DNA from: Shigella phage sb4 | Sequence record: PQ666542 | DNA: 64,000 nt | Strand: one strand, 5' to 3' | Part shown: piece after piece, positions 1 to 64,000 of the stretch | How positions within the stretch are numbered: position 1 is the stretch's first letter | Layout of the letters: each line of letters opens with the position of its first letter | Notes under the pieces: model-generated | Databases searched by the model: none | Seen by the model: only the letters and a program-made list of their open reading frames with translations | What the model was told of the DNA's origin: nothing | Program-made: the position numbers and the translations under genes

Positions 1-15
1 TTTTGAAATAAAAAA

Positions 16-37
16 AGGGAGAGCCGCGGCTCTCCCT
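16..37 (-). terminator. intrinsic-terminator-like hairpin (GGGAGAGC/CGCG/GCTCTCCC) followed by U-run on the transcribed strand
   Basis: perfect 20-nt palindrome at 17-36; T-run at 1-15 on complement; just downstream of ORF ending at 42. Confidence 0.6.
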
Positions 38-41
38 AAAA

Positions 42-191
42 TTACTGCATGACTGTGATAACTGTCATGATAACACGTTGAATTCCGAACGCAAGAAGAC
101 CTCCTGCTACGGCAGGAACAACACCTAAACCCGCCAGTAAAATGCTACCAGATACTAATGCAGCGCTTGTAATACCAATGAATGGACTCAT
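42..191 (-). CDS. small membrane protein, 49 aa (position of T4 52.1)
   Basis: ATG overlaps gp52 stop (ATGA); hydrophobic Gly/Ala-rich product; not in track because under 60 aa. Confidence 0.45.
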   Translation of the reverse strand: MSPFIGITSAALVSGSILLAGLGVVPAVAGGLLAFGIQRVIMTVITVMQ

Positions 192-1516
192 TTGATTTCC
201 TCTAAATCTTTAGTGTATTCTGTAACTACATCAGTAGTTATCCTATATTCGTTTTCTTCTTTTTTGGCTTTAGCTTCTTCAGCAAGTTTTTTTGCTTCGT
301 CAGAAGTCATATGAAAAATATTCATTCCAACTAGTTTATCAACATAAGAAGAATACATATCAATTTTTGAAAGTTCTTCGGTCAGTTCTTTGCGAGTTTT
401 ACCTTGTACAACAATTTCACCTGAAATTACTTTCTTAATGAAATGTGCCTTGGCAAAAGCTAAACGAAATGCTGATTCAGTTTCTTTGATTTTGTTATCA
501 ATTCGTTTTTGGACATAAGTTTTACGAACTTCAACGAAGTCTTTGATTAAATCAACTACATTATCGTAAACTTGCAGCTTTCCTTTCTCATTAATAACGG
601 TGATATTCTGGGAACGACGCACAATCATCCCGAAGTCTTTCATATTTTTTGCTTGACGTTCTTCTTCGTTATCACTCAAAGAGTATTCTTTACAGAATTT
701 AACTTTAAAGCCAAAACCATGCTCACCGAAAGCATCATCCAACGTAATGAAACCTTTATCTTCAAGCGGGTCTAAGATTTTACTCACGTAAGTTTCACGA
801 TCATACTTATATGGAATCTCAGTGATATTCATTTGAGTTCGTGGAGTAAACTTGTATGTTCCACGAATTTCATATTGACCGTCAATTTCAACGACTTCAC
901 CACGAAATTCTGGGAATTCTACCTTAGGTTTAGTTACTTTCTTTCCTTGAAGAGCTTGCAGTACAGCTTTCTTGACAGAAGAAACGCTATGAGGAAGAAT
1001 GTAAGTTGCATAACCAGTTGCAATACCGGAAACACCGTTAAGAAGAACAGTAGGAATAATAGGCAAATAGAAAGCAGGCGGAATGTGTTATTTATCTTGA
1101 TGTACCGGAGAATATTCAGTATATTTATATACGTTATATAAATTTTTACTTACACGAGAAAAAATATAACGACTTGCCGCTGCTTTTTGAACGGTACGAG
1201 AACCAAAGTTTCCTTGACCATCTAACAAAGGAAAGTTATTATTCCAAGTATTAGCCATCAAAGCCCCAGCATCTTGTGCAGAGTTTTCACCATGATGATA
1301 TCCAAGGTCTGCTACACCACCTGCAATAGATGCGAGTTTGTGAAACTTATCTTTATTTCCTCGTGCCAAATCAAGAGCTCGAGCAATAACAAATCGTTGA
1401 ACTGGCTTAAATCCATCAATCATATTTGGGATAGCACGATTTTCAACCGTGTACATAGCATAAGCCAATGCTTCATTATCAATGATACTTTTTAAATCGC
1501 GATTATTCAGATGCAT
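188..1516 (-). CDS. 52: DNA topoisomerase II medium subunit gp52; frame interrupted by in-frame TAA at 1088-1090
   Basis: track ORFs 1088..1516 and 188..1066 are in the same frame; 443 codons total matches T4 gp52 (442 aa); GyrA-like PVQRF motif. Confidence 0.9.
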
Positions 1517-1554
1517 AAATTTACCATACTAGTGAATGTAGTGCCATAATAACA

Positions 1555-1812
1555 TCAGAAATGAAAAGCACGACTTGAATTAATCCGAACATTACTCCAT
1601 AATATAGTGCTACCAATAAAGTAGCAAGGGCTAATGAATAGCCCAAGATTTTCTTAATCATTAGTAGATAACAACACAAATGTTAAATATGCACACATAC
1701 CCTGGGCTAAAGCTTGTGAAAACACACTGCTAGCATCGATACAGATAGTTAAAACACATGCTACTATTCAACAAATAAATGAAATAACTCCTAATAATTT
1801 TGCGATATTCAT
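1555..1812 (-). CDS. small hydrophobic ORF(s), ac paralog, with in-frame TGA at 1768-1770; 3' part frame-ambiguous
   Basis: N-terminal 40 codons resemble neighbouring 51-aa ORF; a 1-nt shifted frame gives cleaner gene ends. Confidence 0.3.
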
Positions 1813-1819
1813 ATTTTCC

Positions 1820-1975
1820 TCAACTATTTTTAGAACCAATGTACGCGAATAATGATAAAATCGCTAATACACCCTGAGCTGATGCTTGCAAAAATACTGA
1901 AGTTTCTCCGGTTATTACTGTTCCGATGCATAAAAAGAACCAACAGAAAAAGGCTATACCGTGAACAAAATTCAT
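1820..1975 (-). CDS. ac: 51-aa small membrane protein, probably ac
   Basis: hand-translated ORF; 51 aa; position between ndd and 52 as in T4. Confidence 0.45.
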   Translation of the reverse strand: MNFVHGIAFFCWFFLCIGTVITGETSVFLQASAQGVLAILSLFAYIGSKNS

Positions 1976-61720: not shown

Positions 61721-62086
61721 AATGAATTTATATAATCAATAAGTTCTTGTTATTTATTATCGAATTCTTTAGAAAGTTATTCGAATTCATTTGCGCTAAA
61801 AGGACCCCATTCATCACAAACTTTTTCCAATTCACTGTTTTTATCCATAACTTCGTGAATAAGAGAAAACAGCTTGTCTTTTTGTTCTTTACTTAGGCTC
61901 ACAGTATATTAATCTCCAAAAGTTTTAAAATGACTCGTTTCTGATTCATAACCGCTACGATTGAATGACCGTTGGGGTCTTTTTGACCTGATCCAATTAT
62001 AAATCCTTTTTGTGCGGAAAGTTCAATCAAAACATCAAGTTCACGTAATAATTGATATTTTAAATCATCATTCATTTCGGTTTACA

Positions 62087-62278
62087 TTATTTAACGAAAT
62101 CAGGATAAGTATAAAATCCTGAATAAAATCCTTCACATTTATGATTGATGAATCATTTATTAGAACAATAGCACAAATAATCGAAATCACAAGCAATTTC
62201 ATCATTACATAAAGCAAAAACAACCGGCCATTCACACTTTTCGCAGTGGGCATTTTTAAGAATACTAGTTTGGCTCAT
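62087..62278 (-). CDS. Cys-rich small protein with in-frame TGA at 62153-62155
   Basis: hand-translated MSQTSILKNAHCEKCEW...CYCSNK*FINHKCEGF...; no start after stop. Confidence 0.35.
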
Positions 62279-62487
62279 AACCATGTAACCTTTAAGCAAT
62301 ATTCTTCTACGTGCTGTTTACGACCTTTCTTATCAATAAAGGTATATTCAACGAATGTTCCAATATAATCTTTATCTACATCATGCGGACTATTACTTGG
62401 GCATTTAGTACGGCAAATGCGTTCCCATTGACGAATAATTTCTGCTTTGTTTTTAGGATCAAACGGATGCGGGTAATGTAGTTTCAT
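62275..62487 (-). CDS. hypothetical protein, 70 aa
   Basis: track ORF. Confidence 0.35.
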   Translation of the reverse strand: MKLHYPHPFDPKNKAEIIRQWERICRTKCPSNSPHDVDKDYIGTFVEYTFIDKKGRKQHVEEYCLKVTWL

Positions 62488-62938
62488 AATCCACCACTAT
62501 TAAATCAATATCAGGAGTAAACATGTCGATTAATTTAGAAACCTTTTCCCAATCTCCACCAGCAATACCACAACCTATGCGTGGAATATAAATTACGGGT
62601 TTAAACAAAAGGGTTTCTGCCTGTAGATTTAATTCTATCATACAGTTTACTAAAGCACCATAATCAAGATTAGGACCCGGTTCGTATTGCGTATACAGGT
62701 TATAGCACATACTAAATCCTGTAGGATTATGTTTAAAAACAATAGACATATCGCCTAATTTATCACGAGAACCGTACTCGGTAGTGGTTTTATCTATTTC
62801 TAAAATTTTTGGATAGGCTCTTGCTAATTGACCTGCTACGCCAGAGCCCATTGTGTGGAAGCAATTACACCCGTGCGCAATAATATTACCTTGAAGAAAT
62901 AGGGCGACAATATCGCCCTTGATATATTTTACAATCAT
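62459..62938 (-). CDS. macro-domain protein (ADP-ribose binding/hydrolase-like), 159 aa
   Basis: track ORF; GNIIAHGCNCFHTMGSGVAGQLA resembles macro-domain core. Confidence 0.55.
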   Translation of the reverse strand: MIVKYIKGDIVALFLQGNIIAHGCNCFHTMGSGVAGQLARAYPKILEIDKTTTEYGSRDKLGDMSIVFKHNPTGFSMCYNLYTQYEPGPNLDYGALVNCMIELNLQAETLLFKPVIYIPRIGCGIAGGDWEKVSKLIDMFTPDIDLIVVDYETTLPASV

Positions 62939-63282
62939 CTAGTACTCAATCCTCGATTATAAGAATCTACTAAACGGTCAACCATTGAATGACAAGCGGC
63001 TAAATCTATCTCCTCCGTAACTGAACATTCTAAGGTATTCCACTTTTTAGCGTATCGTTTTAACAATGTATCATTTTTATATCTGCTTGATTTATCTCTT
63101 TCTCCGTCTTTATATGCATATATTATTTTCTGCGCAAATTCAGCTTGGCATGCTTTATTTTTTCCGCAATAATCCGCGGCAGTACGGTTTACATACTCTC
63201 TAATTTCAGTATATGATGTATCTGCTGATGCAGAAGCAGAAAATGAAATTAATCCTATACATAAAACCAAAATTTTAGTCAT
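62935..63282 (-). CDS. secreted protein, 115 aa
   Basis: track ORF; cleavable signal peptide. Confidence 0.45.
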   Translation of the reverse strand: MTKILVLCIGLISFSASASADTSYTEIREYVNRTAADYCGKNKACQAEFAQKIIYAYKDGERDKSSRYKNDTLLKRYAKKWNTLECSVTEEIDLAACHSMVDRLVDSYNRGLSTR

Positions 63283-63820
63283 TTACTATTTCCAAAAGTT
63301 TATTATTTTTAAGGTAGTTAGCCTTTTCTAGGACTTCAGAAGCATATTTAGAACCTGCTTTAACATTCCATCCCGAATTATAAGAGGATATTGCTTTTCT
63401 TATATCGCCCTTATGCATATTTAACCAATAAGAAAGTTCAATGTACGCCCAGGAAGCTGAATTGGACCGTTTATTCAACATTCTTTTTATTTCAGCATCG
63501 GTCATATTATAACCAAGTTCCTTAACTCTTGCTCGCATGGTTGGCAAATAATTTTGGAACATTCCGTAGGCATGATGCGGTGGGTTAGATTTTAAATTAA
63601 CTCCGGCAGAGCTTTCTTGCCATAAAATAGCAGCCATTATATGACCCAATCCGCTCTTGTGGATATTTTTGTGTGTTTTATATTTTCCATCCTTAGAAAA
63701 TTGTTCCCCGAATTGATATGCGTAGCGCATGTTATCGAGTTGGACATTACTGAAAGTATGCTCGGAGCTATGTGCCATCATTGAAATGGCCAATAGACCA
63801 GCGAGTAGTGCTTTTCTCAT
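63275..63820 (-). CDS. secreted SLT-like lytic transglycosylase domain protein, 181 aa
   Basis: track ORF; signal peptide; WQESSAG and AYGMFQ motifs. Confidence 0.5.
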   Translation of the reverse strand: MRKALLAGLLAISMMAHSSEHTFSNVQLDNMRYAYQFGEQFSKDGKYKTHKNIHKSGLGHIMAAILWQESSAGVNLKSNPPHHAYGMFQNYLPTMRARVKELGYNMTDAEIKRMLNKRSNSASWAYIELSYWLNMHKGDIRKAISSYNSGWNVKAGSKYASEVLEKANYLKNNKLLEIVND

Positions 63821-63827
63821 GCTTACC

Positions 63828-64000
63828 TCATTGATTTTTAATTACTGATTTAGAAGCCTTTCCTGGTAAACGACGACTGTTGATATTTGCAATCCTACAT
63901 TGACGCGACGGGTCTTTGAACTTCGCATTAGGTTTACAAACTGTAAATCCAAGCCAAAGATTTCCATCTGTGATTTCTACACGTCCAGGGCGATATTCAA
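63828..64000 (-). CDS. C-terminal fragment of a gene running off the window
   Basis: open frame ending in TGA at 63828-63830. Confidence 0.3.
   Translation of the reverse strand, partial: EYRPGRVEITDGNLWLGFTVCKPNAKFKDPSRQCRIANINSRRLPGKASKSVIKNQ

Follow-up and report, generated by a model that had tools for sequence, protein, structure and literature searches.

The window analysed here, i.e. the whole stretch of 64,000 nucleotides, comprises positions 1-64,000 of the record of Shigella phage sb4 (PQ666542), which is the phage TMC4 of PMC11993411. Its T4-like genes are interrupted by numerous in-frame stop codons and some frameshifts. Our results indicate with high confidence that the phage is an ordinary Tequatrovirus and that the window represents the initial 64 kb of a public assembly laden with errors. 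There is good support for regarding the layer of changes carrying these lesions as an artefact; its chemistry is deduced from the substitution spectrum. Such a sequence exists in no phage particle, and the lesions do not involve any translation mechanism. Since the essential replication genes 43, 44, 62 and 52 are all hit, a phage with the window sequence would not be viable, as the original prediction, made from the letters of the window, had already argued for growth in a non-suppressing host.

An end-to-end alignment with positions 1-63,990 of Shigella phage pSs-1 (NC_025829) gave 96.94% identity with 1,921 substitutions and 38 indel columns. A megablast search of the whole window, run as three chunks against 50,697 phage records, assigned it to Tequatrovirus. 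Positions 25,001-50,000 were covered to at least 80% by 487 phage records, but no record in this collection, in which PQ666542 itself was not included, exceeded about 97.7% identity over long stretches. The collinear gene order, the high identity and T4 gene names mapping one to one place the window in the early and replication region of this genus. Seven relatives were used for comparison, namely pSs-1, the Shigella phages sb1, sb2 and sb3 (PQ666539-41), which were the nearest records after pSs-1, and the phages T4, Sfk20 and KNP5. A change is called private if it is absent from these relatives.

For the inventory of lesions, 130 coding sequences (CDSs) of pSs-1 were projected onto the window and stops were read at the pSs-1 codon positions. 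In this way we detected 36 in-frame stops in 29 CDSs (31 TAA, 5 TGA and no TAG), four private frameshifts (in srd, modB, mrh and nrdD) and two losses of a stop codon. Altogether, 30 of the 130 CDSs carry a disabling lesion. This agrees with the original prediction, which had reported at least 25 split genes and had named twelve of them (52, rIIA, dda, modA, modB, 43, 44, 62, 47, nrdD, 49 and imm); all twelve are hit. The T4 codon counts quoted there were right, too: gp43, rIIA and Dda comprise 898, 725 and 439 codons, respectively, and their net length is unchanged. Likewise, the stops had been described as the outcome of single-base changes in sense codons; this holds for 36 of 36 when the codons of the relatives are considered. 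The sense codons behind the stops are GAA (12 times), AAA (six), TTA (five), CAA, GGA and TCA (three each) as well as TGG, CGA and TAT (once each). One apparent double change (TTG in pSs-1 to TAA) turned out to be a single one, as four other relatives have TTA at this site. The stop load is far above chance: on the same codon set there are no stops in pSs-1, sb3 and Sfk20, one in KNP5 and three, located in small open reading frames (ORFs), in T4. The lesions are the following:

1088..1090, minus strand: gp52 (topoisomerase II medium subunit), E143 GAA to TAA, private versus all seven relatives
1768..1770, minus strand: pSs1_003, W15 TGG to TGA, private
3916..3918, minus strand: DenB, E123 GAA to TAA, private
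4469..4471, minus strand: pSs1_0012, E53 GAA to TAA, private
7249..7251, minus strand: rIIA, L256 TTA to TAA, private
7999..8001, minus strand: rIIA, E6 GAA to TAA, private
8075..8077, minus strand: rIIA.1, K52 AAA to TAA, private
10990..10992, minus strand: loss of the stop codon at the end of pSs1_0021 (goF-like), TAA to AAA
12907..12909, minus strand: loss of the stop codon at the end of pSs1_0025 (motB.2-like), TAA to CAA
15134..15136, minus strand: Dda, K358 AAA to TAA, private; completes a 10-bp hairpin stem with 15146-15155
16616..16618, minus strand: Srd, Q216 CAA to TAA, private
16841..16847, minus strand: srd, +1 frameshift, run of seven T (T7) versus T6 in seven of seven relatives
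17888..17890, minus strand: ModA, G32 GGA to TGA, private
18278..18281, minus strand: modB, +2 frameshift (+CC), CCCC versus CC in sb2
19789..19791, minus strand: Mrh, L121 TTA to TAA, private
20045..20048, minus strand: mrh, +1 frameshift, G4 versus G3 in the six aligned relatives (T4 is divergent there)
20338..20340, minus strand: mrh.1, E54 GAA to TAA, private
21152..21154, minus strand: gp56-like NTP pyrophosphohydrolase, E152 GAA to TAA, also in sb2
27894..27896, minus strand: beta-glucosyl-HMC-alpha-glucosyltransferase, K92 AAA to TAA, private
29207..29209, minus strand: Imm, S35 TCA to TAA, also in sb1 and sb2
29288..29290, minus strand: Imm, S8 TCA to TAA, also in sb1
32043..32045, minus strand: gp43 DNA polymerase, E178 GAA to TAA, private
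33160..33162, minus strand: gp62, S143 TCA to TAA, private
33454..33456, minus strand: gp62, G45 GGA to TGA, private
33815..33817, minus strand: gp44, K245 AAA to TAA, private
38953..38955, minus strand: gp47, K59 AAA to TAA, private
43547..43549, minus strand: 55.5, L10 TTA/TTG to TAA, private
45308..45309, minus strand: nrdD, -1 frameshift, one base fewer than in seven of seven relatives
46044..46046, minus strand: NrdD, K263 AAA to TAA, private
47102..47104, minus strand: gp49 endonuclease VII, Q67 CAA to TAA, private
47372..47374, minus strand: pSs1_0090, R50 CGA to TGA, private
48044..48046, minus strand: 49.1, E21 GAA to TAA, private
48065..48067, minus strand: 49.1, E14 GAA to TAA, private
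49183..49185, minus strand: nrdC.1, Y44 TAT to TAA, private
52990..52992, minus strand: nrdC.6, L198 TTA to TAA, private
54261..54263, minus strand: nrdC.8, L105 TTA to TAA, private
54453..54455, minus strand: nrdC.8, Q41 CAA to TAA, private
60895..60897, minus strand: rI.1, L4 TTA to TAA, private
61750..61752, minus strand: pSs1_00123, E33 GAA to TAA, private
61777..61779, minus strand: pSs1_00123, E24 GAA to TAA, private
62087..62089, minus strand: pSs1_00125, E66 GAA to TAA, private
62153..62155, minus strand: pSs1_00125, G44 GGA to TGA, private

Two further indels relative to pSs-1, at 43858 and 56447, were not counted as frameshift lesions, since the window alleles are common to T4, KNP5 and sb2 and pSs-1 is the outlier. 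The latter lies in the nrdC.11 homologue (ORF 56123-57136), where a 1-bp deletion in pSs-1 (RefSeq), sb3 and sb1 splits nrdC.11 into two CDSs; the gene is intact with about 337 amino acids in the window, T4, KNP5, Sfk20 and sb2.

It has to be considered whether the stops are read through, be it in a stock dependent on ochre and opal suppressors, by reassignment of stop codons or by programmed bypass. This would suit the exact T4 frame lengths kept in the interrupted genes, in which stops stand in place of K, E, Q, L, S, G, W, R and Y codons. However, with nine amino acids replaced no single decoding rule fits, and the conserved gene ends still use TAA (69), TGA (49) and TAG (9). Reassignment was rejected because TAA and TGA thus remain the terminators of 118 genes, the replaced residues are inconsistent and there is no suppressor tRNA. 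The search for suppressor tRNA genes, which had been proposed as a check, was negative: the window contains no tRNA gene, and the ten tRNAs listed for this group of genomes all have sense anticodons (PMC11993411). A suppressor-dependent stock would have to rely on simultaneous suppression of ochre and opal codons, and it would explain neither the four frameshifts nor the 239 missense transversions among the private changes of the same layer (see below); moreover, this is a wild phage, obtained from lake water with Shigella flexneri as host. Programmed bypass or frameshifting of the T4 gene 60 type does not apply either, as the sites are private and scattered and gp39 is an unsplit protein of 605 amino acids, with no gene 60. 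The probability that the stops are read through in any of these ways is therefore practically nil.

The differences between the window and its relatives fall into two layers. The non-private differences from pSs-1 are distributed over the three codon positions as 177/121/909 and consist of transitions to 80%; this layer looks like ordinary evolution under normal purifying selection. The private substitutions are of a different kind. They number 662 in the window versus 196-291 in the clean genomes. A>T, T>A, G>T and C>A changes account for 349 of them, compared to 17-38 in the clean genomes. Accordingly, transitions make up 74-85% of the private changes in clean genomes, whereas in the window 53% are transversions directed to A or T. 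Relating the private counts to the base composition, we calculated per-site rates of about 0.46% for A:T to T:A and about 0.66% for G:C to T:A changes (ratio about 1.4). Smaller private excesses were found for transitions at codon positions 1 and 2 (about 75) and for A>C/T>G changes (about 30). In total, the extra layer comprises about 430 changes, corresponding to about 0.65% of the bases, and about 80% of these are purine to T or pyrimidine to A changes.

This layer is blind to selection. The 349 transversions are spread over the codon positions as 108/115/99 (p=0.55 for uniformity), and their synonymous, missense and nonsense effects (52/239/28) match those expected in the absence of selection (45.4/240.2/33.4, p=0.40). 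Applying the excess transversion rates to the codon usage of pSs-1 yields an expected number of 28.9 stops (20.8 TAA, 3.7 TGA and 4.4 TAG), and 30 of the 36 observed stops arose by such transversions. The stops are thus the nonsense share of a selection-blind error layer of about 0.65% per base, and the predominance of TAA results from the AT-rich codon usage.

The errors occur in patches (index of dispersion 2.2) with an excess of neighbours within 5 bases; a sequence motif was not found within +/-5 bases around them. Miscalls copying a neighbouring base (phasing) or due to two-colour chemistry were rejected, as the wrong base shows no preference for the base next to it and an A precedes most G>T changes. 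Editing by an anti-phage deaminase would give transitions, but transversions were seen. An error of the nanopore type does not fit the very small number of indels, and the data reported are from Illumina sequencing (PMC11993411).

We interpret the data as follows. A normal, selection-shaped genome with about 97% identity to pSs-1 is overlaid by the roughly 430 changes that exist in the record only. Those landing on codons one step from TAA or TGA yield about 30 stops, and a few indels yield the frameshifts. Probably the template DNA was damaged, so that the polymerase would add A opposite apurinic sites and 8-oxoguanine (8-oxoG) would mispair in addition; insertion of A opposite an apurinic site leads to purine to T changes together with the complementary pyrimidine to A changes. 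Both the A-rule at abasic sites (PMC4167244) and library errors of the C:G>A:T type derived from 8-oxoG damage (PMC5521083) are established. The errors may have been fixed in the consensus through a very low effective depth or library complexity. The original prediction had offered four explanations without choosing among them. Sequence error stood up, suppressor stock and readthrough fell, and engineered or simulated lesions are unlikely. Even so, the wording 'base-calling error' was right as to error but too narrow as to base-calling, an error of the library or the assembly being more likely.

The lesions are largely restricted to this record. That viable relatives might have stops at the same positions had been named as the finding that would speak against lesions, but for 33 of the 36 stops none of the seven relatives has a stop, and none of the relatives aligning at the sites of the four frameshifts (up to seven per site) has the frameshift. 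Exact matches to 61-mers spanning the stops in genes 43 and 44 were found in none of 491 and none of 374 phage records, respectively. A 36-mer scan of IMG/VR gave no exact hit for the context of the gp43 stop, and three protein fragments of the window had no exact match in the protein collection. Only three stops (imm S8, imm S35 and E152 of the gp56-like protein) are shared, and solely with the sibling assemblies sb1 and/or sb2. Both changes in imm are G>T after a run of T on the plus strand. All three stops may be recurrent artefact hot spots, or those in the dispensable imm gene may represent a real null allele exchanged among co-occurring phages.

Four phages, ADG1, AKR2, CRD3 and TMC4 (PQ666539-42), come from Kolkata lake water, with Shigella flexneri as host. 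Their libraries were prepared by enzymatic fragmentation and PCR amplification and run on a NovaSeq 6000; SKESA was used for assembly and Prokka for annotation, and de novo assembly is the only kind described (PMC11993411). The genome of TMC4 comprises 164,971 bp with 291 proteins, that of ADG1 has 285 proteins and the two intact siblings have 254-255 (PMC11993411). Table 1 of that paper lists multiple entries of TMC4 for topoisomerase II (002/003), rIIA (014/015), ADP-ribosylase (032-035), DNA polymerase (059/060), the clamp loader (062-064), SbcD (071/072), NrdD (088-090) and endonuclease VII (091/092). All eight of these multi-fragment gene families match lesions of the window, and sb1 is broken at other places. 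Beyond the window, the small terminase, DNA ligase, NrdA, RNA ligase and Alt of TMC4 are split as well (PMC11993411, Table 1), so that the error layer is genome-wide.

On the same codon set, we counted 31 stops in 25 genes of sb1 (ADG1, PQ666539), with repeated hits in gp52 and dda (three each) and in rIIA, gp41, gp43 and nrdD (two each). In sb2 (AKR2, PQ666540) there are eight stops and the DNA polymerase is split, and sb3 is clean. The private excess of sb1 consists of 156 G>T and 105 C>A changes, i.e. of the G:C to T:A component only. Fifteen G:C to T:A sites are common to the window and sb1, compared to about 1.5 expected by chance according to our estimate from the per-site rates, indicating technical hot spots. 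The guanine-plus-cytosine (GC) content of the homologous regions increases from sb1 (34.16) over the window (34.33) and sb2 (34.58) to sb3 (34.61). The whole genomes of ADG1, TMC4, AKR2 and CRD3 show the same ranking with 35.16, 35.35, 35.49 and 35.52, respectively (PMC11993411). This is what G:C to T:A errors would produce. Taken together, the lesions are private, blind to codon position and effect and non-natural in their spectrum, and records of the same batch have the same kind of defect, all of which points to an artefact.

The window, sb1-3 and Escherichia phage Ec_YwIITB1 (PQ356294) all start at the first base of the pSs-1 record. As the four Kolkata records start identically and the paper gives de novo assembly only, it seems likely that the contigs were ordered or the consensus was made with the help of a reference, in a step that was not reported.

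Some of the private changes are related to nearby inverted repeats. The longest nearby inverted match is lengthened by 176 changes and shortened by 79, compared to 136.5 and 115.2 in simulations with the same number of sites. The effect on folding energy is small (p=0.012), and templating by direct repeats had no effect. Private changes create perfect palindromes of 20 nt at 36343-36362, 18 nt at 25734-25751 and 12 nt at 48007-48018. At 58070-58085, the bases introduced by three linked private changes correspond to the reverse complement of a segment located 29 nt away, which is a signature of template switching or foldback. Foldback chimeras are a known artefact of enzymatic fragmentation, and the palindrome-completing minority of changes fits this. 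As the main cause, templating by foldback or quasi-palindromes was rejected, since the bias is real but accounts for a minority of the errors.

Alternatively, the lesions might have been introduced in silico, either when the window was prepared or by editing after assembly. In favour of this, the spectrum is oddly restricted, as the new base is almost always A or T, the lesions ignore selection, and no public record or protein identical to the window was found, PQ666542 not being in the collection searched; the common start of the four Kolkata records at the first base of pSs-1 points in this direction, too. Nevertheless, an independent paper from 2024 gives the same split genes for TMC4, and the records of sb1 and sb2 have related lesions. 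Neither the patchiness nor the hot spots common with sb1 nor the weak palindrome bias would be expected of a simple simulator, and the ratio of about 1.4 between the two per-site rates looks chemical. We consider an origin in silico highly improbable.

The lesions could also be real in the DNA that was sequenced, i.e. in a damaged or hypermutated, largely non-viable population resulting from a mutator polymerase swarm or from damage in the capsid. The damage-like purine to T spectrum and the batch-specific differences among the four siblings are compatible with this, as are the three stops common to siblings, two of which lie in the dispensable imm. No lineage, however, could fix 36 stops and four frameshifts including those in the essential genes 43, 44, 62 and 52, and unlinked rare variants would not reach the consensus at normal depth. 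Besides, the bulk of the divergence is under normal purifying selection. Such a population, which is highly doubtful, would in practice equal an artefact, because damage in individual molecules constitutes no genotype. It is very unlikely as well that part of the layer is real, with the three shared stops being inherited nulls or with heavy in-virion depurination or oxidation of the glucosyl-hydroxymethylcytosine DNA. Even if one of these two versions holds, the remaining stops are still artefactual.

Several points weigh against our interpretation of the window as an ordinary genome covered by assembly errors. The imm S8, imm S35 and gp56-like E152 stops could be real alleles instead of recurrent errors. 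The weak palindrome-completing bias suggests a second source of artefacts. A consensus error of 0.65% is unusually high for Illumina data assembled with SKESA, and the conclusion is drawn indirectly, from the consensus sequence. About half of the G>T sites have an A in front of them, a preference that would not follow from any simple damage model. Finally, the lack of TAG stops (0 versus 4.4 expected, P about 0.012) is mildly unexpected. In sb1 there is a comparable mild deficit of TAG (1 of 31 stops).

Nearly all genes are located on the minus strand in T4 order: 52, ndd, denB, rIIB, rIIA, 39, dexA and dda are followed by srd, modA/B, mrh, soc, 56, 61, 41, 40, uvsX, 42, imm, 43 and regA and then by 62, 44, 45, 46, 47, a-gt, 55, nrdH/G/D, 49, the nrdC cluster, rI, tk and vs. 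Two short dispersed repeats were noticed which look intergenic. Positions 54571-54637 (67 bp) are 98.5% identical to pSs-1 3224-3290, and positions 56002-56091 (90 bp) are 88.9% identical to pSs-1 29689-29778 upstream of gene 43. They may be shared regulatory sequence. Among the relatives, the RefSeq record of KNP5 (NC_055713) has a length of 193.6 kb with about 28 kb repeated at its ends; its nrdD is annotated as two pieces (30821-32638 of the stretch compared), and it is the relative with the single in-frame stop mentioned above.

Biologically, the interrupted genes represent no new code, suppressor or regulatory mechanism and are not a real biological feature. Their significance is a practical one. 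At least two published GenBank phage genomes, TMC4 (PQ666542) and ADG1 (PQ666539), contain about 0.5-1% consensus errors, and AKR2 (PQ666540) is affected to a lesser degree. Such errors inflate gene counts (291 and 285 versus about 255 proteins), seed databases with truncated proteins and weaken comparative analyses that depend on them. Private variants, an even distribution over codon positions and a neutral ratio of synonymous, missense and nonsense changes provide a quick test for faulty records which requires no reads.

Compared with the clean Tequatrovirus genomes (pSs-1, sb3, Sfk20, KNP5 and T4), gene order and gene lengths of the window are the same at about 97% identity, which is lower for T4. 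In contrast to T4, the window has the unsplit gp39 (8285-10105) without gene 60 and mobA, a beta-glucosyl-HMC-alpha-glucosyltransferase of the T2/T6 type (27327-28175) replacing the T4 beta-gt and an intron-free nrdD (45016-46832); segF, dam, segA and mobB-D are absent. Classical T4 nonsense mutants have one or few lesions of one codon class and a matching suppressor host. In recoded phages, one stop codon is reassigned consistently and avoided as terminator, and a suppressor tRNA is usually encoded. Both share with the window only in-frame stops in essential genes; their other hallmarks are absent from it. The records of sb1 and sb2 resemble the window in lake, host, library kit, sequencer, assembler and record start as well as in private splits by TAA and TGA and in the G:C to T:A excess. 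They differ from it in that their lesions are mostly located elsewhere with few sites in common, and sb1 is without the A:T to T:A component, which makes up more than half of the excess in the window. Damage artefacts of Illumina libraries usually occur at low allele fraction and not in the consensus, whereas here they are fixed, for which a very low effective depth would be required. In all other respects compared they are like the lesions of the window, with purine to T and pyrimidine to A changes, a rate at G:C sites of about 1.4 times that at A:T sites, a patchy distribution, differences between libraries within a batch and a weak tendency towards palindromes.

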